A stretch of DNA of 64,000 nt from a virus, in IMG/VR virus record IMGVR_UViG_3300011113_000287, positions 1 through 64,000 of that record, one strand, 5' to 3'. Numbering within the stretch: the stretch's first letter is position 1; every line of letters begins with the position of its first letter. The position numbers were made by a program, and so were the translations under genes. This document shows, one piece after another, positions 39,733 through 49,874 of this stretch. A model generated the notes under the pieces. The model did not search any database. It saw only the letters and a program-made list of their open reading frames with translations, and was not told where the DNA came from.

Positions 39733-39865
39733 TTTGTAACTCCATGTTTACGGCAGCGGTTGAGTGTACGTCTTTATTCGTACAAATGGGAGGGTATTTA
39801 TTGCTGAGTACTGATACGGTTTTTTTACATTTAGGGCATTTGTAAGTATACGGTAGGGCTTTCAT
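39707..39865 (-). CDS. Small Zn-binding protein (not in the ORF track)
   Basis: MKALPYTYKCPKC...PPIC....H; ATGA overlap. Confidence 0.5.
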   Translation of the reverse strand: MKALPYTYKCPKCKKTVSVLSNKYPPICTNKDVHSTAAVNMELQNVRTKENH

Positions 39866-41298
39866 TGCTCCTCTTCAATGTCTATCACTTCCTGATAAAA
39901 CGAGTCCGTTGCCGCTGGTCCTAGTCCACCATGTGGTAGGGCATTGGCTTGGTCGGCGGCTCGCTGTCCGAACAGTCTAGACAACACGCCGCTTGAACCA
40001 CGGGCTTCAACCTCAAAGCGTACAAGGTCACGGGTGTCGTTGATGCTCTTGAATTTCTCAATCATTTCAAAAGCCCTGTCCATTTCAGATGACAAAGAGG
40101 AATCAAGTCCTTGTCCCTCCATCTCTTCGGCAAAGCGGGCAAACATAACACGGCTCACTTGCATCTCAATCATGGCTCTAAGGGCTGCCTGTAGTTGGTC
40201 TCTAGTTCGTATCTCCACAGGCAGTTTAAACGCACATTCTGTATGTTCCTTAAATGCGGGACATTTTGAGGCCAGATAACAATTATCGCACTGCCGTAAA
40301 AGTGCTCCCGTGTAGCGAATTATGTTGGTTTGTTCAGGTGCAATTTCAATAGATTCCCCATGTTCATCAATGGTTTGAGAACCCATTGAGGTAATGGTTT
40401 CCACCCCCATGACGGGTAATAATAAACGCTCATTTTCGTTCCGCTTTTCGGGAGGGGGGATAACAATACCTGTACCCCTGTTTTCCACATTTGCTAAACT
40501 ACCACCATGGGGGGGTGTAATAATTATGTCACCACTTTCAGTGTCGTCGGAGTCGCCTTGATTGCTTGATGTCATGGTGTCATAGCCCCCAAAAATGTGT
40601 TCTTCGTAACGTTTCCACGATGTGATTGCCAACTTGCTGACCGCATCAACCTCGTCAGCCATGACGCTTTCAAACGGAATACCCAAGCGCTCAATGTCCG
40701 ACCTATGCCGTTTACGGGCAGAGTCTTTTTGTTGGGCGGGGTAACGTCGTAACCCATGTCCCGTCCAGACCTGCGTCTCTCCGTAACGCACAGCGCTTGT
40801 CCAGGAGTTGACCAATACGGCATCCCATTTGTAGTTTTCAATGTTGTCTGGTTTTGAGGTCAACCCGACCATTTCGGCGTTCCACCGCATGGCAATGGCA
40901 TTTAGCCTATTGTGATGGTGTTTAGTCAATGCCTTGTCACTGATGGCTACTCTGCCGTGCCTTTGGCAAATCCAATTAAGACGTTCAAGGTCGTCGGCGT
41001 CGTTCCAAATTGGTACGTACTTTTCGCCCAACCATGTTCCGTCGTAATCTGGGCGACCAATGACCAGAGTTAAATCATCAACATAAGACCGTAAAAAAGC
41101 ATCGTAACGAGACACGTCTTCGTCTGCCTCTGACGTGTAAATCAATAACTCACTATTTTCGTATTTCGTGCGTAGGTCTAATTGTTTCTTTTTTGGAATA
41201 GCCAAATGGGTCAAATTAAGACCAATACGACGTACTTCGGCTGATAACAGCATTGAGGCGTACATGCCTTTTTCTGCTCCGCCAAAGTAAATCTTCAC
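39862..41298 (-). CDS. Large protein: possible degenerate TGT-like barrel plus C-terminal Cys cluster
   Basis: KIYFGGAE start, NSW.SAVRYGETQVW, CDNCYL..KC......C. Confidence 0.6.
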   Translation of the reverse strand: MKIYFGGAEKGMYASMLLSAEVRRIGLNLTHLAIPKKKQLDLRTKYENSELLIYTSEADEDVSRYDAFLRSYVDDLTLVIGRPDYDGTWLGEKYVPIWNDADDLERLNWICQRHGRVAISDKALTKHHHNRLNAIAMRWNAEMVGLTSKPDNIENYKWDAVLVNSWTSAVRYGETQVWTGHGLRRYPAQQKDSARKRHRSDIERLGIPFESVMADEVDAVSKLAITSWKRYEEHIFGGYDTMTSSNQGDSDDTESGDIIITPPHGGSLANVENRGTGIVIPPPEKRNENERLLLPVMGVETITSMGSQTIDEHGESIEIAPEQTNIIRYTGALLRQCDNCYLASKCPAFKEHTECAFKLPVEIRTRDQLQAALRAMIEMQVSRVMFARFAEEMEGQGLDSSLSSEMDRAFEMIEKFKSINDTRDLVRFEVEARGSSGVLSRLFGQRAADQANALPHGGLGPAATDSFYQEVIDIEEEQ

Positions 41299-41522
41299 TC
41301 CCAGCCTGCTTTGCGCCACACGGCTTGCGATGAGAACGCTTCTACTTCCTTACGGTGTTCGTCGCTGTGGTAAAGGCGAAGGAGATGAATGCAGGGGTCC
41401 TGTCCTTCTTCGTACTGTTCGGCTTCTTCTTGGCTCATAGGCATGCCGTCGTGTGGGTCGCAGACAGGCGGTGAACACCAACCCATCTTGACTCCAATTT
41501 CAATCCATTCATCTTGTCTCAT
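41295..41522 (-). CDS. Small Cys/His protein
   Basis: GWCSPPVCDPHDG...DPCIH. Confidence 0.65.
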   Translation of the reverse strand: MRQDEWIEIGVKMGWCSPPVCDPHDGMPMSQEEAEQYEEGQDPCIHLLRLYHSDEHRKEVEAFSSQAVWRKAGWE

Positions 41523-41998
41523 GTTTCTCGCCACGTCCTTTCTGCGTTTTTGAGTGCTTGCGTTTCTATCTCTTTTGTGATTTCGTCCCATCCCACAATT
41601 GTACGTGGTTGGTCCCATTCTGGGCGTACTACATGAGGAACGGTTACCAAAAGGGTGGGAATGCCCTCTTTTATTACTTTGGCAACTGTTTTGGGGTCGG
41701 TGTCAACGTACCAGTCAATGCGGGTGTGTGCAGCGTGTATTGCCCTCACTCGGTCAAGCCTGTTGTCTGGGCCAGTCTCCCAGTGGAAGTCAATTGAACC
41801 TGGTTTGAATCCCTCTTTTTTCAACCACTGCATGACCAGTTCGTGATGATGCTTGTCAACACCGTCCACGAGTAGGCATATGCGTCCGTTGTACGTAGGG
41901 AACAACATGTTCCACAGTTTGCGCCCGTGGCTGTTCGGTTGACTAGAGCCAATCTCAGAAGACCTGTTGGCAATGACGTCAAAGGTAACGACAATCAC
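41519..41998 (-). CDS. HAD-fold-like protein (degenerate)
   Basis: WLKKEG, WYVDTDP, GIPTLLV. Confidence 0.55.
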   Translation of the reverse strand: MIVVTFDVIANRSSEIGSSQPNSHGRKLWNMLFPTYNGRICLLVDGVDKHHHELVMQWLKKEGFKPGSIDFHWETGPDNRLDRVRAIHAAHTRIDWYVDTDPKTVAKVIKEGIPTLLVTVPHVVRPEWDQPRTIVGWDEITKEIETQALKNAERTWRET

Positions 41999-42492
41999 TT
42001 GTCGTACAGTCCCAACATCTTGCGTTCTTTATGGGTGTACCAAGCGGCTGCTGGGCAGTACATACACAGGTACTGACGCTTGTCCTTGGGGACTCCGATT
42101 TTGCGACCAATGGTCTTGGATTCGTCGCACCAATCAATGCAGCCAGTGGTAGGACGGTTATGCCTGTTGAAGCAGTTGAGGGCATCCACTTTCAGTTCAT
42201 CACGGAAGTCCTTGATGATAATGTCGTGGTTCTTCAACTCATTCTTAATTGCCGTTTCAGCATCCAACTTGTCGGCGGTATCCTTGTCCGTGCGGAAGAT
42301 GAGAGCACGCCAATTGTCGTAATCCTGATTACGAGCCTTATGGCGTTCCAGCACGTCCAGCAATTCCATGTCGTATTCAGGAGGTCCGTCGTACGGGCGT
42401 AGTTTATAAATAACGCCATCGGTTTTTTTATTACCGACGACACGCCAACAAACGAGCAGACGATTAGGTTGGTCAGACATGTTGTTCTCCAA
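41995..42492 (-). CDS. Hypothetical protein with Cys/His motifs
   Basis: CFNRHNRP...C...YLCMYCP. Confidence 0.7.
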   Translation of the reverse strand: MENNMSDQPNRLLVCWRVVGNKKTDGVIYKLRPYDGPPEYDMELLDVLERHKARNQDYDNWRALIFRTDKDTADKLDAETAIKNELKNHDIIIKDFRDELKVDALNCFNRHNRPTTGCIDWCDESKTIGRKIGVPKDKRQYLCMYCPAAAWYTHKERKMLGLYDK

Positions 42493-42513: not shown

Positions 42514-42783
42514 TTATTTTTTCATTCTTGGCTTCAGACTATTGTCTAACGCCAATCCTAGAAATTTACCGTCTTTAGGGTCTTCTACGTAGGTAAACGG
42601 GGAAGGTAAGCGCATGGCGCCAAATTGAGAGCCTTTGGCAACCCTCACCAATGACCCTGGTTCAATGTTTAGTTTGGACTTTTCCTTGTCCAATCCTTCG
42701 GGGCGCCATTCGTATACTGCTCCAACACGGGGTCTTTGTGGACGACGACGGCTGTTGTTTTGTTCGTTGTGTCCATGAGGCAT
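42514..42783 (-). CDS. Tag-B small protein (MPHGHNEQNNSRRRP)
   Basis: Leaderless TATAAT 6 nt upstream; SH3-like beta body. Confidence 0.7.
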   Translation of the reverse strand: MPHGHNEQNNSRRRPQRPRVGAVYEWRPEGLDKEKSKLNIEPGSLVRVAKGSQFGAMRLPSPFTYVEDPKDGKFLGLALDNSLKPRMKK

Positions 42784-42825
42784 GATTACATTATAGTGTA
42801 CACGACTCAAAGAAGTCTTAAAGTT

Positions 42826-43974
42826 TCACGAGTATTGCGGTTTTTCGTTTGGATACATTTCTACGGGCTTTCCACGTGTTACATATACTCGGTAATCTTG
42901 AGACGGTACTCCAAAGTGGCTATAGTCGTAATCATCGTCTTCTGGGACCTGCATAAACCTTGATGGCATGCCAAAGGCTTCTGCGGTATTATCGGTGTAT
43001 TCAAGTGGTTCAAATACTCCGTCGTCTAAGTCTGCTTGAAAAACGTCGTCTGCACGAGCGTTCAAAATACTACGCCGTTTCTTTGGATACTGCTGTTCAA
43101 GGCGTTTCTCTTCTTTCAGTGCACCACGTCTAGTCATAAATGGTCGGCTTTCATGCACCAATTCGCCCTCGTCGTACCACCAGCCTCCCTCTGCTGAGCC
43201 GCCGTAAGCATCATGCTCCTCGTAGACACCAACACGGTAAGGTGCAATTCGCTCTTTTAGTCTGTCAACTCGTGACAAATTCCTTGTTTTTCGTTTATGT
43301 AAAGCCTTCCCAACAGCAACAGAGTTTCTTGTGTATTCTCCTTGATACTCATTTCCGTCGTTGTAATAAACTTTTCCATCGCCTTTTACGTCTTTGTCCG
43401 ACGATGAGAAAACCTTACGTTCCTCAAGAGCCTTGTCAACAGAGCGCTTTCCCAGCAGGGCTGCAAGCGTGATGTGTCGGCTCGTTGCACGTGGATAGCC
43501 AAAGGACGGAATTTCTCCCGCAAGTACTTGTCTTTCTAATGCTTCAGCCCCTCTTTTAAGCCTTTGTGACTCTTGTAAGGAATCCACAACGTCAGGATGA
43601 CTGTTGTAAAAAGACGAACTTCGTTTTGATTTATTTATCCTTATTTGTTCTTGTCGTTCAAAGGTATCTGGATATTGATACATTCCTTTGTCTTCTATTT
43701 CTTTTAAAGTGTCAGCATTTGAGTGCAACGTCTCTATGCGTTTTAGCGTTTCATCTGTCCATCTTTTTTGACGGTTGAGAGACGTAACGTCCCTGTCTAC
43801 TGCTTCACTAAATCCAACTTTTTCGTATGAATCACCTTGTGCTTGCTGAAGGCGAAAAACCTGCTCTCCTGTTGCCGCCGACCCTGGTCGGATTAGTGCT
43901 CGTGCAATAGAGTCACGAAAACGTTGACCACGTGTCAATGGCTGTTCTGGTTCTTGGGTTCCCCAATCACTCAT
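42826..43974 (-). CDS. Hypothetical protein with C-terminal YGGxxEGGWWY domain
   Basis: AGGAG RBS before MSDWG. Confidence 0.7.
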   Translation of the reverse strand: MSDWGTQEPEQPLTRGQRFRDSIARALIRPGSAATGEQVFRLQQAQGDSYEKVGFSEAVDRDVTSLNRQKRWTDETLKRIETLHSNADTLKEIEDKGMYQYPDTFERQEQIRINKSKRSSSFYNSHPDVVDSLQESQRLKRGAEALERQVLAGEIPSFGYPRATSRHITLAALLGKRSVDKALEERKVFSSSDKDVKGDGKVYYNDGNEYQGEYTRNSVAVGKALHKRKTRNLSRVDRLKERIAPYRVGVYEEHDAYGGSAEGGWWYDEGELVHESRPFMTRRGALKEEKRLEQQYPKKRRSILNARADDVFQADLDDGVFEPLEYTDNTAEAFGMPSRFMQVPEDDDYDYSHFGVPSQDYRVYVTRGKPVEMYPNEKPQYS

Positions 43975-44317
43975 TAGATTCTCCTTCGCCAGAAAACTGG
44001 TCGCCAAGTTTGGGGATACCTGTTGCTTTACGCATACGAGCCTCCCATGTTATTCTTTGTAACAAACGTGCTCCAGGTGAATCGTAGGTTCCTGGACCTT
44101 GATACTCTCCCTCAAAGTCAGAAACGGGAACAGCAGCCGCTCGCATCATAGCACCATGCTGCTGCTCAGTGGTCATGCCATGTTCGGCAAGAATGTCGCC
44201 TTCAGCCTTTGCTTCTTGCTTTGCTATCAGCCCATCCATGTGTTTCTTGTTTCGTTTACGGCGAGTTTTTGCCGCTTGCGAACTTCGCTTTTCCATTTTA
44301 CTTTTCTTTTTAGCCAC
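43967..44317 (-). CDS. Basic hypothetical protein, C-terminal LGDQF
   Basis: GTG start AKKKSK. Confidence 0.6.
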   Translation of the reverse strand: MAKKKSKMEKRSSQAAKTRRKRNKKHMDGLIAKQEAKAEGDILAEHGMTTEQQHGAMMRAAAVPVSDFEGEYQGPGTYDSPGARLLQRITWEARMRKATGIPKLGDQFSGEGESNE

Positions 44318-44321
44318 GGTA

Positions 44322-44600
44322 TTAGCAATCCCAGGCTCGCAGAGACTTATTAATGCGGCTGTTAGGGTCACGTGCAGTTTTGGCTGACGTGTTCTTCTTC
44401 TTCATGCCTTCCATTCGGGCACAGAATGACTTGCGACGGGCAGCAGACTTCTCCGATTTGGCGGCTTCTTTTTTCTTCACAGGCGGCTTGAGGTCAGAGC
44501 CAGGGTTCTCACGTTCGTAGGACTTGCGTCCCTTTTCGTTGAGACCGCCCTTTTCGTTCTTGCCTTCTTTGCGCTGCCACGCTGCTGATTTCTTAGCCAT
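44322..44600 (-). CDS. DUF6321-like small basic protein
   Basis: WQRKEGKN..GGLN.KGR...RRKSFCARM...SRINKSLRAWDC. Confidence 0.8.
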   Translation of the reverse strand: MAKKSAAWQRKEGKNEKGGLNEKGRKSYERENPGSDLKPPVKKKEAAKSEKSAARRKSFCARMEGMKKKNTSAKTARDPNSRINKSLRAWDC

Positions 44601-44983
44601 TATCTTATGTTAATCCTTCCAACATGTTCTCTCTTTGTAAGTAACTTACCTTCGTTTGCCGTGGCCCCTACATTAAAATGGTCATCAATGTAACGTGCTG
44701 CTTGAATTGCTGATTTAAATGGAAAAGTTCTGTAACTATCCACTGTCTTTGGTTGTTCATCAAACTCAAGAGTTACATCATACCCAACAACGTGGAGGGG
44801 ACCAGCCGTATGTCGCCTTTTGCTGCCCATATTAGTTCTCATTTTCGGACGAACGTCTGGAGAAATTAACACATCTTTGTGGGTGTAATGAGGCCATGTG
44901 TCAAAACCCATTCCTGGAATAAGACGCATCTCACGTTTGGGTCTCCGACTTTCATTGTGGCGTTCGTCTTTTCCACGTGCCAT
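44600..44983 (-). CDS. Tag-B protein (MARGKDERHNESRRP)
   Basis: Coupled ORF. Confidence 0.7.
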   Translation of the reverse strand: MARGKDERHNESRRPKREMRLIPGMGFDTWPHYTHKDVLISPDVRPKMRTNMGSKRRHTAGPLHVVGYDVTLEFDEQPKTVDSYRTFPFKSAIQAARYIDDHFNVGATANEGKLLTKREHVGRINIR

Positions 44984-45105
44984 TACTTCTTCTTTTTCTT
45001 TTTGACCACAATTTTGCGGTTCTTTTCTTTCACGGTCATACCAGCATCCTCGGTCTGCCCTTTTAGTTGGGCATACTTTTCAGCCGCTGTGAGTTTCTTT
45101 GCCAT
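44983..45105 (-). CDS. 40-aa Lys-rich peptide (not in the ORF track)
   Basis: MAKKLTAAEKY...VVKKKKKK; TAATG overlaps. Confidence 0.65.
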   Translation of the reverse strand: MAKKLTAAEKYAQLKGQTEDAGMTVKEKNRKIVVKKKKKK

Positions 45106-45266
45106 TACTTCTTCTTTTTGGCAACAGCCATGTTGTCCACGAGGTTGGGGTAGGGGCGACCTGCTTTTTTGGCACGAGCCTTTGCCTCAGCCTTTTCAGA
45201 CGGGTCAAGTTTTTCCGACTTCTTTTTTGGGTTCTTCTTGTCCCATACTTGTTTCTTTTTAGCCAT
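45105..45266 (-). CDS. 53-aa Lys-rich peptide (not in the ORF track)
   Basis: MAKKKQVWDKKNP...AGRPYPNLVDNM. Confidence 0.7.
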   Translation of the reverse strand: MAKKKQVWDKKNPKKKSEKLDPSEKAEAKARAKKAGRPYPNLVDNMAVAKKKK

Positions 45267-45277
45267 GTTCTAACCTT

Positions 45278-45523
45278 TCAGTCTTCAGGCCAATCTAGAC
45301 CCCAGTCATCAATTGGCTTTTGTGGATATCCGTATTTCTTTTTTACTTTACCGTAGCCTGCCAACTTATCAAGTCGGTCAAACAATGCGTCAAGGTCTTC
45401 TTGACTCTTTGGTTCTGGACCCGACTCTGCTGGAACGCCGTTTGGAAACGCATTGGAGTAACCGTCAGGTGGGCGAACTGGTTTCCTTTTGGGATTAAAC
45501 GATTCGTCGTTACCTTTTGCCAT
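45278..45523 (-). CDS. Tag-B protein (MAKGNDESFNPKRKP)
   Basis: GGAG RBS. Confidence 0.7.
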   Translation of the reverse strand: MAKGNDESFNPKRKPVRPPDGYSNAFPNGVPAESGPEPKSQEDLDALFDRLDKLAGYGKVKKKYGYPQKPIDDWGLDWPED

Positions 45524-45528
45524 GATTG

Positions 45529-45846
45529 TTAATACAAATCTCCAGCCTTATGCGCTTTGTAGGCGTTGTAGTCGTCTCCAAAAGCCTCTTTCTCGGCGTC
45601 GGATTCCGCTGTGCGGTAGTAGGAGTCTGCCATGTCGCTGTACTCAGCGCTGCCTTCCTGCTCCATTCGTAATGCCTCTGCTTCATCTTCAGGAGTTGGC
45701 ACATACGAATCAGCCTTTTTGTAATCAGTGTTTACTTCCCTGGCGTTGGGGAACACTTGTTTGACAATAGCCATCTTCTCTTCGTCCGTCTGGGGACGCT
45801 GAGGGCGCCTGCGTGGGTTATTGGATTCGTCGTTACCTCGTGCCAT
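45529..45846 (-). CDS. Tag-B protein (MARGNDESNNPRRRP)
   Basis: AAGGAG RBS. Confidence 0.7.
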   Translation of the reverse strand: MARGNDESNNPRRRPQRPQTDEEKMAIVKQVFPNAREVNTDYKKADSYVPTPEDEAEALRMEQEGSAEYSDMADSYYRTAESDAEKEAFGDDYNAYKAHKAGDLY

Positions 45847-45855
45847 AGTTACTCC

Positions 45856-46017
45856 TTAGTTGAATGGGGGCATGTTTTTGCGACGTCGGTTCTGCGAAGG
45901 GCCAGCCACTGCGCCCAATCCAGTAAACGTACGGATACGGTCAACGGCTTCCTTCATCAAACGACGATTGTCCGTCCTGTTACCTGCAACGGGTTCTCCA
46001 CGATGCGTGTACGGCAT
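45856..46017 (-). CDS. 53-aa basic peptide (MPYTHRGEP; not in the ORF track)
   Basis: Manual translation; TAATG overlap. Confidence 0.6.
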   Translation of the reverse strand: MPYTHRGEPVAGNRTDNRRLMKEAVDRIRTFTGLGAVAGPSQNRRRKNMPPFN

Positions 46018-46223
46018 TATCGCCTACCGTACTCAGCCGTAGGAAGGTCGGCAAGTTCCGAACGCTCCACGATGTTGTATTGCATCTGCAACTCATGACC
46101 ACGCATGGTAACGCTGGTCATTTCAACCTCTCCACCACGGTTAGGAACGATGGTCTTGAACTTACCATCGGTTGCCCCCATGATGAGGTCTCGGTTCATT
46201 GAACGTGATTCATTAACAGCCAT
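46017..46223 (-). CDS. Small protein (MAVNESRSMN)
   Basis: Coupled ORF. Confidence 0.65.
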   Translation of the reverse strand: MAVNESRSMNRDLIMGATDGKFKTIVPNRGGEVEMTSVTMRGHELQMQYNIVERSELADLPTAEYGRR

Positions 46224-47311
46224 TATTCTTCCTCTTCCTTGGTTACTTTGCCTGCGGTCTTTTTCTTGGTTACCTTGCCTTTAGCAACAGCGGAGGGCGG
46301 AGTCTTTTTGGTTGCTGATTCAAGGTCGCTCTTAGCCTTGTCCTTGACGGCGCTGCGTTCCTCGGTCTCTTTGACCTTTGCCTCGGTAGCCGCCTTGGTT
46401 TTCTTGGCTGGCTTCTTTTCTGCTGGCTTGCTAGGAGTAGGCGACTTGCCAGCAGGCTTTTCAGCGGGCGATTTACCAGCGGGTTTCTCAGCAGGTTTTG
46501 CAACAGGCTTTGCGGGTTCTGTTGCGGGTTTCTTGGGGTCTGGCTTCTTGCTTGCAGGACCTTCTTTTGCAGGAGGCATTTTGCGAGCATCGGTAGTTGT
46601 CTTAACCGTAGTTGTCTTTCGGTTGTCGCTCATGTCGTCACGACCAGTGAATTTGTTACGACCAACTTGGGCGGTTGGATTACCAAACTTTACTCCGCTG
46701 AAATCAGCCATTGAGTCTCCAACGTCTCCTCCACGAGCAGCGTTACCGCCTGCCCCTCCACGACCTGCGCCACTTGTGCCACCCTTCCCTGCGCCGCCAT
46801 CGCCGCCACGAGAAGAACCAGCCTTACCGCCAGCAAAGGTCGGAGCGTACTTTTGAGATTGGTCAATCTTGCTGCCGACCATGCTATCTTTTGTTGTAGC
46901 ACCCATGCCAAGTGAGCCGACTGAACCCTTGATATCACCAGTCTGCGTCTTACCAATGCTCAAATCAAACTTAATGTCACCACCAGCAGTCATTCCACTG
47001 CCGCCACCTTTGGTTGCACCTGCGCCCATACCGCCAAATGCGGTTCGGCGTCCTTCTCGTGCGGGAGCCTCTGGCGCTCCACGACCATAATCGGGTCTTC
47101 CAATATCTGCTTTACCCATGGGCATTGCACCTTTCGCTTGGGGTGTTGGTTTTAGTTCTCCGTAAGTTGGTCCTTGCATGTTTGCTTGTGAACGATGACC
47201 TTGACCAGACAAACTTCCAGCGCCCATTTGGTTAGTTCCACGTTGCTGTGCTCGGAGGTTTACTCCAGCAAATCCAGCCTCTTGGTACTGTTGAAATGGA
47301 TTAATTGGCAT
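46223..47311 (-). CDS. Low-complexity Gly-rich then Lys/Pro/Ala-rich (histone-tail-like) protein
   Basis: PAEKPAGKS repeats, highly basic C-terminus. Confidence 0.7.
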   Translation of the reverse strand: MPINPFQQYQEAGFAGVNLRAQQRGTNQMGAGSLSGQGHRSQANMQGPTYGELKPTPQAKGAMPMGKADIGRPDYGRGAPEAPAREGRRTAFGGMGAGATKGGGSGMTAGGDIKFDLSIGKTQTGDIKGSVGSLGMGATTKDSMVGSKIDQSQKYAPTFAGGKAGSSRGGDGGAGKGGTSGAGRGGAGGNAARGGDVGDSMADFSGVKFGNPTAQVGRNKFTGRDDMSDNRKTTTVKTTTDARKMPPAKEGPASKKPDPKKPATEPAKPVAKPAEKPAGKSPAEKPAGKSPTPSKPAEKKPAKKTKAATEAKVKETEERSAVKDKAKSDLESATKKTPPSAVAKGKVTKKKTAGKVTKEEEE

Positions 47312-47608
47312 TTATACCCACAAACTTTGCATTGAATATCTACTAGAACCCTGGAACGTGTCGTCTACCAAACCGTTACGGAACATGACGGGCGCCCCTG
47401 AGACCCAGGAACGATACGTCGGTGTGTAACGTTGTAATGATAACACATCCATTATACCCGATTCACGCTTGGCAAATCCATAACGCTCTGGCATAAGTTG
47501 CTGCGGAACAACGGGGCGAATTTGACGGATGGTGTCGGGGTCGGAGATAGCCGATTCCAACGCAAGGTCAACCAACATCTCTTGACGGGAAGCCCAAGGT
47601 TTAGCCAT
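47312..47608 (-). CDS. Hypothetical protein
   Basis: 98 aa. Confidence 0.65.
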   Translation of the reverse strand: MAKPWASRQEMLVDLALESAISDPDTIRQIRPVVPQQLMPERYGFAKRESGIMDVLSLQRYTPTYRSWVSGAPVMFRNGLVDDTFQGSSRYSMQSLWV

Positions 47609-47610
47609 TG

Positions 47611-49470
47611 TTAGTCCTCAACGTTCGGTCTTGCTTGGGGAGAATAACCCATTGTTATTGGATATTGCATGATTTGCCTGTTTCGTTCACCATACGTTTC
47701 TCTCCTATAATCCCCACTATTTGACCACGTTAAGTTTCCATCTGGCATTGGACCCTCAAATGGAAGCCTCAACTGACCAGCATCTTCTAGCCGCAATTGT
47801 TGCCTTCGTGTGAATGGCTTACGACTGTTACGAGGACGCCTTGCTGAAGCGGCTGCGTTTGCACGTTGTTTCTGCCTGACCGTTTCGTAATGGGCGTCGG
47901 CAATGGAAGCGCCCATTTGCTGAGCAGTCTCCCTGGACCTGACGAACTCATGAGCACCGTGTTCTGGGAAATAATGTTTGAACCCAACGGGGCTTCCCGC
48001 CGTCTGTTTGTGGCGGTCCTGTTGGTATGCAGCCCTCAACATGTTGTCTGCAATTTGTTGGGGAGAGTGATATCCAGAATCAGAAAGGGCACGGGTAACC
48101 GCTGCCCGATGCCTGTTCGTTGTCTTGCTGTGCCTTTGGGTGGGGACGACAATAGTGTCGTCGTGCTGCCTCCACGCAATCGGAGTATTGTAAGAATATA
48201 CAACGTTTCTGTCGCTGCTGTCTGGCTGGTGCTCAGGAGCAAGTCTGCTCGTGTCTAGCCAACCAACACTGCCCATTGCACTGTGGTCTCCAAAATGGCT
48301 CATACTATCCCTAGGAGTAGCCGCTCCTCTAATCACGTCATCCCTGTTTACAAATGACTGAGCAACTCCTTCAATGTTGCGACGTCGTGGACCATCGGTT
48401 CTACGTGTGCGACGACCTTGCTGTCGTGAACCGCTGGGAGGTATGACGTTAGAAGATTCGTCTCGTCTTGTAACTGAGTTAATCCATGTACGGTCTAAGT
48501 TTTTTAAGTGTCTTCGTGTGTTTTCTTCTACCCGTGTTTTTGCTAAACTGTGATGGGCTGGACTGTTAACACTCTGCGGGTTAATGGGAACTACGGTATT
48601 TACAACGTCTTCTTTCAATTTAGCAAAACGTTCTTTCCACTCGGTGTCATCTACTCCCGTTTCACTAACTTCTTTACGGTGCTTTTCTGCCCAATCTTTG
48701 ACATTTCGTAGGTCAATTTCGTGCGGGGCGTTTTGACTTTCTTCAACAACTGGGAGTACGTTTCCCTGGAACAGTTGAATCCTGTCATCACGACCTTCAC
48801 GTACGTCACGTGTGGTGGGAACTGTGTAATAAGCCGCACTTCTACGTGGCTGAAGTTCCCCACGCATCCATAATTCTTGGTCACTTAGCGGTACGTCTTC
48901 TACACGACCTCGGTCAAGGGAGGTTTCAACTTCGTCTGACGTCCGTCCTGCCTGACTGTATTCAAACGGGGCATACCCAGACTGTTCTTCAACTTCATCT
49001 GGTGTCAGTGATTCTGCCCATTTTCCAGTTCCAACAATGTCGGTGTTTGCTGCTCTGGTAGCAGCATCAAGATAGGCTTCTTCTTCTGCTTTTGTCCACG
49101 GAGCAACCTCTCCACCAAGAGTGGGGTCTGTGCTTGTGAAATCCGTTGTACTGTGTACGTCTTTGTGCAGCCTTCGTCGCATTGGTTGGTGCGTTTCACT
49201 GTAACTATTCTCAGCACGCACGGCGAAGTCACGTGGATAATACTTGGGGTCTGGCATATACATGCCCGCAGGACTCTGCTCGTCCTCGGTTACCCCAGGA
49301 AAAGACTTTTCAATCTCCGCATTTACACGGCGACGATTTTCTTCTTGTTCAAGTTCTCCGTAATTAATTAATGCACTGTTGATTGACTGCTCAGCACGAC
49401 GTGTTTCCCTAAGCAAACGAGCACGGCGTTGCGCCCGTGACTCTGCTGGAGGTACTACTGGGTCTGTCAT
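47611..49470 (-). CDS. Large hydrophilic protein with YSYxTPIAW domain
   Basis: VVYSYNTPIAW...HSKTTNRH; GQLRLPF near the C-terminus. Confidence 0.7.
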   Translation of the reverse strand: MTDPVVPPAESRAQRRARLLRETRRAEQSINSALINYGELEQEENRRRVNAEIEKSFPGVTEDEQSPAGMYMPDPKYYPRDFAVRAENSYSETHQPMRRRLHKDVHSTTDFTSTDPTLGGEVAPWTKAEEEAYLDAATRAANTDIVGTGKWAESLTPDEVEEQSGYAPFEYSQAGRTSDEVETSLDRGRVEDVPLSDQELWMRGELQPRRSAAYYTVPTTRDVREGRDDRIQLFQGNVLPVVEESQNAPHEIDLRNVKDWAEKHRKEVSETGVDDTEWKERFAKLKEDVVNTVVPINPQSVNSPAHHSLAKTRVEENTRRHLKNLDRTWINSVTRRDESSNVIPPSGSRQQGRRTRRTDGPRRRNIEGVAQSFVNRDDVIRGAATPRDSMSHFGDHSAMGSVGWLDTSRLAPEHQPDSSDRNVVYSYNTPIAWRQHDDTIVVPTQRHSKTTNRHRAAVTRALSDSGYHSPQQIADNMLRAAYQQDRHKQTAGSPVGFKHYFPEHGAHEFVRSRETAQQMGASIADAHYETVRQKQRANAAASARRPRNSRKPFTRRQQLRLEDAGQLRLPFEGPMPDGNLTWSNSGDYRRETYGERNRQIMQYPITMGYSPQARPNVED

Positions 49471-49874
49471 TTGTCATCAATGTCTTTGTCTATGATTTTT
49501 CCAAGGGTTTTGTCCCACATCTTCTCCATCATGGTTTTATTGGCGGGGTTGCGGTCAATGAAGTCACGTTCTTCTGAATAGTTTTTGGCGGCTTTGGGAC
49601 GAGGGATTCCCTTATAAGGAGTCGGGTCTGTGTCTTCAGAAACTCTGTTCTCCCGTTTCGTTGCTTTCTTTTCCTCTTCCACGTAATCGTAGATTTCACG
49701 AGACCTGTTAGTTGGATGCTTTATGCGTGCGTTTCCCTTTGCAACGGCATCCGACCTTTCTTGAAGGTTGACTTCACGGACGTCCTTTACTTGACCAGTT
49801 TCCCTAAAATGATTGAGGTCAATGATTTTTGGGCGACGGCGAGGGTCGTTCTCGGAATTCCTACCTCTAGGCAT
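49467..49874 (-). CDS. Tag-B protein (MPRGRNSENDPRRRP)
   Basis: GGTGG RBS. Confidence 0.7.
   Translation of the reverse strand: MPRGRNSENDPRRRPKIIDLNHFRETGQVKDVREVNLQERSDAVAKGNARIKHPTNRSREIYDYVEEEKKATKRENRVSEDTDPTPYKGIPRPKAAKNYSEERDFIDRNPANKTMMEKMWDKTLGKIIDKDIDDK

Follow-up and report, generated by a model that had tools for sequence, protein, structure and literature searches.

A conserved N-terminal peptide on unrelated small proteins of a freshwater myovirus lineage, a candidate docking motif

The internal-protein loci of T-even phages are hypervariable, and in phage T4 a capsid targeting sequence (CTS) is carried by IPI-III and Alt, as set out in PMC3012670. T4 provides the precedent for this kind of arrangement, in which small phage proteins of diverse kinds share a short N-terminal tag. 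Here we describe another such tag, encoded in a 64-kb window (the whole stretch of DNA analyzed, i.e., the first 64 kb of the 92,155-bp virus record IMGVR_UViG_3300011113_000287) and called the MARG tag below; it differs from the T4 precedent in its sequence, its charge, its acidic and disordered bearers, its place in the replication module and its sister forms in the same slots. Literature searches turned up no description of it. The tag is well supported as a sequence feature, and our comparisons and structural models favor, by a little over even, a role as a short linear motif by which all bearers would dock to one common partner. As in T4, a short N-terminal peptide is the sole common part of diverse, fast-evolving and mostly small proteins, and both phages are myoviruses. 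However, the two peptides have no sequence similarity (as judged without a comparison tool), and the tag is highly charged where the T4 peptide is amphipathic.

Five minus-strand open reading frames (ORFs) with an ATG at 42783, 44983, 45523, 45846 and 49874 have N-termini that align without gaps over 15-17 residues, just as a preliminary description of this DNA had stated:

42514-42783, minus strand: tagged protein 1, 89 amino acids (aa); tag MPHGHNEQNNSRRRP (codons 42739-42783); body family 2, predicted SH3-like beta-barrel
44600-44983, minus strand: tagged protein 2, 127 aa; tag MARGKDERHNESRRP; basic body, predicted alpha/beta fold
45278-45523, minus strand: tagged protein 3, 81 aa; tag MAKGNDESFNPKRKP; acidic body, isoelectric point (pI) 4.5
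45529-45846, minus strand: tagged protein 4, 105 aa; tag MARGNDESNNPRRRP, then a conserved box (...KQVFPNAxEV), then a hypervariable acidic tail
49467-49874, minus strand: tagged protein 5, 135 aa; tag MPRGRNSENDPRRRP; its stop overlaps the start of a 619-aa gene

The genes at 42783 and 49874 start at the tag ATG and not at the longer TTG/GTG ORF, and several of their orthologues have an in-frame stop a few codons upstream of that ATG. The pattern of the preliminary description, applied as M-[AP]-x-G-x-[DN]-x3-[ND]-x2-R-[RK]-P, matched exactly five times in the six frames of the complete 92,155-bp genome. Without its first three residues it likewise matched five times, each time three codons after an ATG. 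Residue frequencies predict 7.6e-6 matches, and 100 shuffled genomes gave none. A looser match that had been proposed in the terminase operon (GRSADPRRV in the ORF at 83-646) is due to chance: it lies ~13 residues downstream of the ORF start, has neither the conserved N10 nor P15, and satisfies neither the pattern nor the tag profile. The same genome carries a Q-F tag at 12-21 kb, which is also a short head peptide on unrelated accessory proteins; the two tags had been called distinct, and their motifs do differ when compared, the Q-F island moreover adjoining tail-fiber genes.

The consensus over 15-17 residues is M-A-[RK]-G-[KN]-D-E-x-x-N-P-x-R-R-P, with a net charge of about +3 to +5. In a sample of one member per body family, G4, R13 and P15 are invariant, D6, E7 and N10 occur in 18/19, and residue 2 is A, P, T or S; one copy outside this sample has V. 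With a small residue at position 2 throughout, loss of the initiator Met is to be expected. The tag has a sister form whose end reads H-P-N-R-K-V (in full M-A-x-G-E-[DN]-T-x-x-H-P-N-R-[KR]-V, i.e., E7 to T, N10 to H and P15 to V), and P15 is thus not invariant in the wider family. Two resemblances were discarded. An SH3-ligand-like R-x-x-P-x-x-P (R12, P15, P18) was treated as coincidence because P18 is present in only 13/32 copies. A likeness to the N-terminus of actinobacterial bL34 (MAKGK...NNRRR) was dropped because Pfam gave no match and D-E, N-P and P15 are not bL34 features.

We examined codon usage in 32 non-redundant tag copies from the window and related contigs. Across residues 2-16, codon positions 1 and 2 averaged 1.17 bits and position 3 averaged 0.49 bits, and the four-fold third bases of G4, R13 and P15 held 0.34, 0.04 and 0.54 bits. 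The 30 nucleotides (nt) upstream of the tag carried almost no information beyond the stop/start overlap, and the Arg codons of R-R-R-P differ among the window copies (CGT, CGG, AGA, AGG, CGC). Our search patterns constrained only the first two positions of each codon; a cis-element would nonetheless show conserved third bases, and none were seen, so a DNA or RNA element is not indicated. As judged from these codons, selection is acting at the protein level and a cis-element is for practical purposes excluded. The peptide reading of the preliminary description thus holds, the similarity being no higher at the DNA level. A promoter/terminator scan across 41-53 kb gave counts equal to those in shuffled sequence.

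The same data bear on the idea that the tag is either a recognition sequence for a modifying enzyme, like the leader of a ribosomally synthesized and post-translationally modified peptide, or a DNA/RNA cis-element at gene starts, which we regard as very improbable. A conserved head on variable sequences does resemble leader peptides, but no maturase-type family was found among the neighbors scanned with Pfam, PHROG and NCBIfam (several of which have no assigned family and might include an undescribed enzyme), and clustering revealed no family specific to tagged loci; the cis-element is countered by the free third positions, varied Arg codons and unconserved upstream DNA.

Searches beyond the window showed that the tag is confined to protein starts almost without exception. 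In IMG/VR, two degenerate DNA patterns matched 11 and 19 stretches, and JGI metagenomes gave 22. Once translated, essentially all of these had the tag at a start codon, the exceptions being an 18-codon ORF in two short contigs. A tag profile built from 30 copies (alignment A1; threshold E <= 0.001) matched 41 proteins, 48-164 aa long, among 1.84 billion representative proteins. All 41 matches begin at residue 1-3, and the two not at residue 1 are accounted for by a GTG start and by an alternative start that lies two codons further upstream. Across 376 kb from related loci, a start codon lies exactly 3 codons upstream of the core in 99/99 matches. We also drew a sample independent of the tag, anchored on a conserved 165-aa gene (114 contigs found, 80 kept), in which 37 loci had at least 7 kb upstream. 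A broadened tag core, which takes in the sister form, was present in 24/37 of these loci. Either this core or a second head peptide, the HRG head described below, was present in 30/37, with the HRG head in 10. The 63 distinct core matches of this sample all lie on the gene strand and 60 of them are N-terminal, and with profile matches at protein starts and unrelated bodies behind them, the expectation that the tag stays N-terminal on non-homologous proteins was borne out for nearly all copies. The remaining 3/63 (~5% of this unbiased sample) are internal. In two of them, which belong to orthologous proteins, an 'IYNLDEYR' box stands before the motif; in the 49874 family a similar box, 'IIDLNHFR', stands after it. 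Internal copies fit a binding motif better than a cleaved N-terminal signal.

The bearers belong to one freshwater lineage. Near-identical DNA is present in lake, river and other freshwater metagenomes (public runs from several studies). A single RNA run gave short contigs of 85-95% likeness, which do not show transcription of the tagged genes. One DNA pattern searched against one genome for each of 185,579 prokaryote species matched 2 stretches, the first a lake phage contig with three tags misbinned into a metagenome-assembled genome and the second probably a chance match; by this single pattern there was no convincing cellular copy. No tag was found by tblastn among 50,697 cultured phage records. 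A search of the ESM Atlas with residues 1-20 gave no usable match.

Two readings of the tag as a signal for other machinery were weighed against these results. A Tat or Sec signal peptide was rejected because R-R-P is followed by polar or charged residues in every family, with no hydrophobic stretch. A degradation or processing signal, with a phage proteasome-family protein or a host Clp-type machine reading the N-terminal peptide at a set time, is improbable. Such a signal would suit a terminal tag that is predicted to be disordered and whose small residue 2 (A/P/T/S/V) should expose a new N-terminus by loss of the first Met, and the lineage does encode a conserved proteasome-family protein (PF00227, 31 bits). 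Yet known bacterial N-degrons require far fewer than fifteen conserved residues, some copies of the tag are internal, and an unfoldase partner was not seen. The protease gene belongs to the core of the lineage and is present in all relatives, and thus carries no specific signal. This protein (209 aa; genome 87524-88153, minus strand; G000 = L058:9524-10153) is encoded just upstream of the portal gene, begins M-T-T-I-V-G as expected of an N-terminal-nucleophile hydrolase, and is 58-66% identical in three relatives.

We next consider the bodies behind the tag. Once the first 17 residues had been cut off, BLASTP sorted 100 distinct tagged proteins (median length 87.5 aa) into 19 families, and the five window proteins represent five of them. 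The bodies have a median pI of 4.6, below 5.5 in 76% of the 100 proteins, and most look disordered. In a profile-profile comparison (hhalign) of alignment A2 (the 42783 family) with A3 (the 44983 family), columns 1-18 alone align. AlphaFold models of proteins 1 and 2 (mean predicted local distance difference test (pLDDT) 77 and 78) differ in fold, and in both the first ten residues, which belong to the tag, lie outside the fold, with means of 53 and 46. The claim that the bodies are unrelated, and not full-length paralogues, is upheld by these families, by the alignment that ends at column 18 and by the different predicted folds. For protein 1, a fold search returned only weak generic SH3 matches (E >= 0.05). 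For protein 2, there were only 4 homologues among 5.8 billion proteins, all tagged, and its model had no confident structural match in the PDB (best Z 4.6). These folds thus yield no lead to function. An ESM Atlas model of protein 4 is of low confidence (pLDDT 0.53; predicted template modeling score 0.18), consistent with disorder, and Pfam and PHROGs recognized nothing in the five tagged proteins.

Heads and bodies have been exchanged. The 49874-family body aligns from residue 16 with an untagged protein of a relative from its residue 3 (pair E 3e-4), and the tagged body P0037 is 44% identical (E 3e-16) to a protein headed M-T-T-D-H-R-G.... The first 38 residues of the 45846 family are 74-100% identical between contigs (87-100% without one divergent member), and in the closest pairs the DNA of this head is 96-100% identical; beyond the head the genes of the family are unalignable. 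This sharp boundary within the gene, from 96-100% to ~45% DNA identity, indicates module recombination and not drift. A contig from a 2025 aquatic metagenome carries ~660 extra bases at exactly 45827-45846, and both flanks of this insertion fit the first 20 nt of the tag. The insertion agrees with relatives that have one extra tagged gene at the same spot.

This modularity is central to another possibility, that the tag is no address and the genes are duplicates of one ancestral small gene, its N-terminus itself active (e.g., as a blocker of a host protein) and the bodies drifted. Tagged genes are often adjacent (45523/45846 in the window, a run of three in L011), tag and body are inherited together vertically inside a body family, and further short boxes are common to several families (...KQVFP..., acidic aromatic C-termini, 'IVDLxxFR'), all as descent from one gene would have it. 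We nevertheless hold this explanation distinctly unlikely: by the models, drift could not have turned one copy into an SH3-like barrel and another into an alpha/beta fold, some bodies are also known untagged or with another head, and the identity boundary in the 45846 family points to recombination.

Two of the boxes shared beyond the tag deserve a description of their own. One, [IV]-[IVY]-[DN]-[LM]-[ND]-x-[FY]-[RK] with H-P-[ST] 20-35 residues on, recurs on small proteins with and without the tag, and on tagged ones it stands on either side of the tag (window 49785-49829, minus strand; L052 6827-7156; L053 9149-9493; L073 4612-4932). The acidic aromatic C-termini, on many tagged proteins, take forms such as ...G-Y-N-G-F, ...G-F-N-D-F, ...D-N-G-Y and ...K-D-P-Y-D-K (P0006, P0017, P0018, P0030, P0038 and window 45529-45600, minus strand). 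They are reminiscent of SSB and T7 gp2.5, whose acidic tails finish in an aromatic residue.

Taken together, peptide-level selection, disorder, few invariant residues, exchangeable unrelated bodies, a near-obligatory N-terminal position and restriction to one lineage lead us to favor a docking motif. The tag, which the models predict to be floppy, heads fast-changing, small and mostly acidic accessory proteins of one freshwater myovirus lineage; every bearer would bind the same partner via the motif, and the variable body would carry the individual function. Because there is no convincing cellular copy by the one DNA pattern, and none in cultured phages, the partner is more likely lineage-specific than a general cellular component. 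The candidates are the interior or scaffold of the assembling head and the phage DNA or a replication/modification nucleoprotein complex, neither of them likely when taken singly; a host target, a protease and a modifying enzyme rank lower.

Several described systems share parts of this design. Beta-clamp-binding peptides and the C-terminal tip of SSB also have few conserved residues, are disordered and near-terminal though tolerated elsewhere, occur on unrelated proteins and belong to the replication module; their sequences are unrelated to the tag, they are C-terminal where the tag is N-terminal, and the hub of the tag is putative. Polymorphic toxins (MuF- or LXG-headed) likewise combine a constant head with swapped tails and a sharp recombination boundary, but the head here is a peptide of 15-38 residues, not a folded domain, and no toxin-like domains occur in the tails. 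The cargo-loading peptides known from encapsulins are short terminal peptides that bring unrelated cargo to an HK97-fold shell protein; unlike the tag they are mostly C-terminal and hydrophobic, and nothing here indicates binding to a capsid protein.

The genomic setting bears on which partner the tag might have. Genes for sheath, tape measure, baseplate, capsid and portal, which mark the phage as a myovirus, lie at 64-92 kb, all on the minus strand. The tagged genes are flanked on one side by genes for PolA, a RecA-like protein, a Cas4-like exonuclease and an SNF2 helicase (replication/recombination) and on the other by a DpdA-like transglycosylase and a glycosyltransferase. In all related loci they fill three slots of one conserved gene order, i.e., after a 162-aa gene, after a 68-aa gene and just before the 165-aa gene. 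T4 internal-protein genes likewise lie outside the head-gene cluster. The basic peptides that the preliminary description saw interspersed with the tagged genes are indeed there, as a DUF6321 protein and two Lys-rich peptides:

44322-44600, minus strand: very basic, untagged DUF6321 protein between tagged genes (Pfam PF19846, 2.9e-25; PHROG matches)
44983-45266, minus strand: two untagged Lys-rich peptides, one of 40 aa (44983-45105) and one of 53 aa (phrog_34011; 45105-45266)

If the tag worked as T4 capsid targeting does, it would bind the scaffold or prohead interior, and its cargo would be packed and injected with the DNA, the tag perhaps being cut off. By this analogy, a short N-terminus common to a diverse, fast-changing set has the architecture of the T4 internal proteins (PMC3012670). 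This phage, itself a myovirus, has a separate coiled-coil scaffold-like gene, the tagged bodies could pass a tail tube because they are small and for the most part disordered, tails are swapped between close relatives as an arms race predicts, and the neighboring DUF6321 is called a 'structural protein' in a few cyanophages, by annotation only. On the other side, the genes sit in a replication/DNA-modification module, and no tagged protein is recognizable as a virion protein or enzyme. Unlike the T4 peptide, the tag has no (L/I)-x-E or (S/A/G)-x-E site, with K/N at P3 of its sole conserved Glu. PHROG and Pfam scans of the larger head-region ORFs recognized portal, capsid and scaffold-like ORFs and the one proteasome-family protein, but no T4- (gp21-), HK97- or S77/S78/ClpP-type prohead protease. 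The mostly acidic, disordered bodies (76% acidic) would pack poorly against DNA, a few copies (3/63) are internal, and the Q-F tag beside the tail-fiber genes of the same genome suits injected cargo better. Capsid targeting is therefore unlikely on present evidence, though it has the best-known precedent.

The same setting among replication, recombination and DpdA genes, adjoining very basic histone-like proteins, is what an anchor for nucleic acid would lead one to expect, in which an Arg-rich arm (N-P-x-R-R-P, an SPKK-like turn) would tie acidic bodies to phage DNA or RNA at the replication/modification site. The net charge of the tag suits such an arm, and rare internal copies are compatible with it. 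But non-specific binding leaves the near-invariant G4, D6, E7 and N10 and the preference for residue 1 unexplained, acidic bodies would repel DNA, and the tag profile matches PDB sequences at chance level only. An AT-hook or SPKK motif was rejected as such: the tag has no R-G-R-P core, its own core (N-P-x-R-R-P or H-P-N-R-K-V) occurs once per protein at residue 1, and Pfam gives no AT-hook or other match at E <= 0.1. We consider a nucleic-acid anchor unlikely. The preliminary description had suggested binding to a virion component or to nucleic acid, and nothing links the tag to either, its genes lying in the replication/DNA-modification module and not beside structural genes.

Several points weigh against a docking motif as well. 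No binding partner emerged from the families of the neighbors, from clustering or from matches of the profile to the PDB. The conserved neighbors (162-, 98-, 68-, 165- and 159-aa) have no informative family in Pfam, PHROG or NCBIfam; DpdA, also conserved, is named by PHROG, and NCBIfam gave nothing for ten neighbors. At least four conserved neighbors also occur in Streptomyces phages that lack the tag. Clustering identified no gene family specific to tagged loci, every common family belonging to the common synteny, and because the tag-bearing contigs are all relatives, co-occurrence cannot single out a reader of the tag. Vertical inheritance with a conserved N-terminus would produce part of the same picture, and the support for docking is computational throughout, coming from sequence comparison and predicted structures.

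The Streptomyces phages are of the BRock/LuckySocke type (~115 kb). They have a homologue of the 162-aa gene (42-47% identity) and, judged by eye from N-termini, look-alikes of the 98-aa, 68-aa and DpdA genes in their replication region. The LuckySocke region (L059) that looks like window 39862-42492 (minus strand) holds Cas4 exonuclease, SSB, ThyX and RuvC genes. The 162-, 98- and 68-aa genes and the DpdA-like gene may form a conserved set linked to DNA modification. DUF6321 is the only gene of the tag region with DNA-level relatives in the phage collection, at 65-69% identity and mostly in marine cyanophages and pelagiphages. A protein search gave 457 records. In cyanomyoviruses, proteins of 427-461 aa carry DUF6321 at their C-terminal end, and a few of these have the annotation 'structural protein'.

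Upstream of the SH3-like tagged gene, the sequence ACTATAATGTAA(T/A)C stands directly before the ATG (window 42784-42802) and is conserved in the orthologues of L003, L014 and L022. It places TATAAT, a -10 box likewise conserved in orthologues, 6 nt before the ATG. With this spacing, transcription would begin at or beside the start codon, and the mRNA is predicted to be leaderless.

Next to tagged protein 4 lies a gene with a different head:

45856-46017, minus strand: HRG-headed protein, 53 aa; starts MPYTHRGEPVAGN; head M-x-x-x-H-R-G-x-P-h-x-G-N

This head is possibly a sister tag. In its longer form, M-x-x-x-H-R-G-x-P-h-x-G-N(-H-R-P-T-P-R), it is found on at least four different small bodies. 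Further copies are at L002 7466, L027 2087 and L010 1539-1910 (all minus strand) and in L098 and L108 (plus strand, 6-10 kb). The HRG head fills the same variable slots in relatives without the MARG tag, and one body is common to the HRG head and the MARG tag. The two may be diverged forms of a single tag, as both have R-G early and R-P ~9 residues on. A 362-aa protein at 46223-47311 (minus strand) is Gly-rich in the middle and finishes in a Lys/Pro/Ala-rich, histone-H1-like tail. In contig L039 this tail (93% identity over 92 aa) forms the end of a MARG-tagged protein, which could be a natural fusion or an assembly chimera.

The 92-kb lineage might thus contain two or three separate address codes, namely the Q-F tag, MA+G+DE..NP.RRP with its HPNRKV form, and M...HRG.P..GN, which would route classes of accessory protein to different destinations, e.g., the virion and the replication/DNA-modification site. 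We put this forward as a distinctly doubtful extension, and the two sorting pathways of the preliminary description are likewise still conjecture. If it is true, a phage of ordinary size would sort proteins through multiple channels and gain new cargo by recombining bodies behind a tag. If the MARG tag is a docking signal, accessory proteins of abundant uncultured lake phages would become identifiable from sequence alone, and the tag could be a handle for sending foreign proteins to the same destination. The tagged accessory proteins are probably host-takeover or anti-defense factors. Their boundaries between constant heads and variable tails, together with the cassette insertion, show recombination making new small phage proteins.

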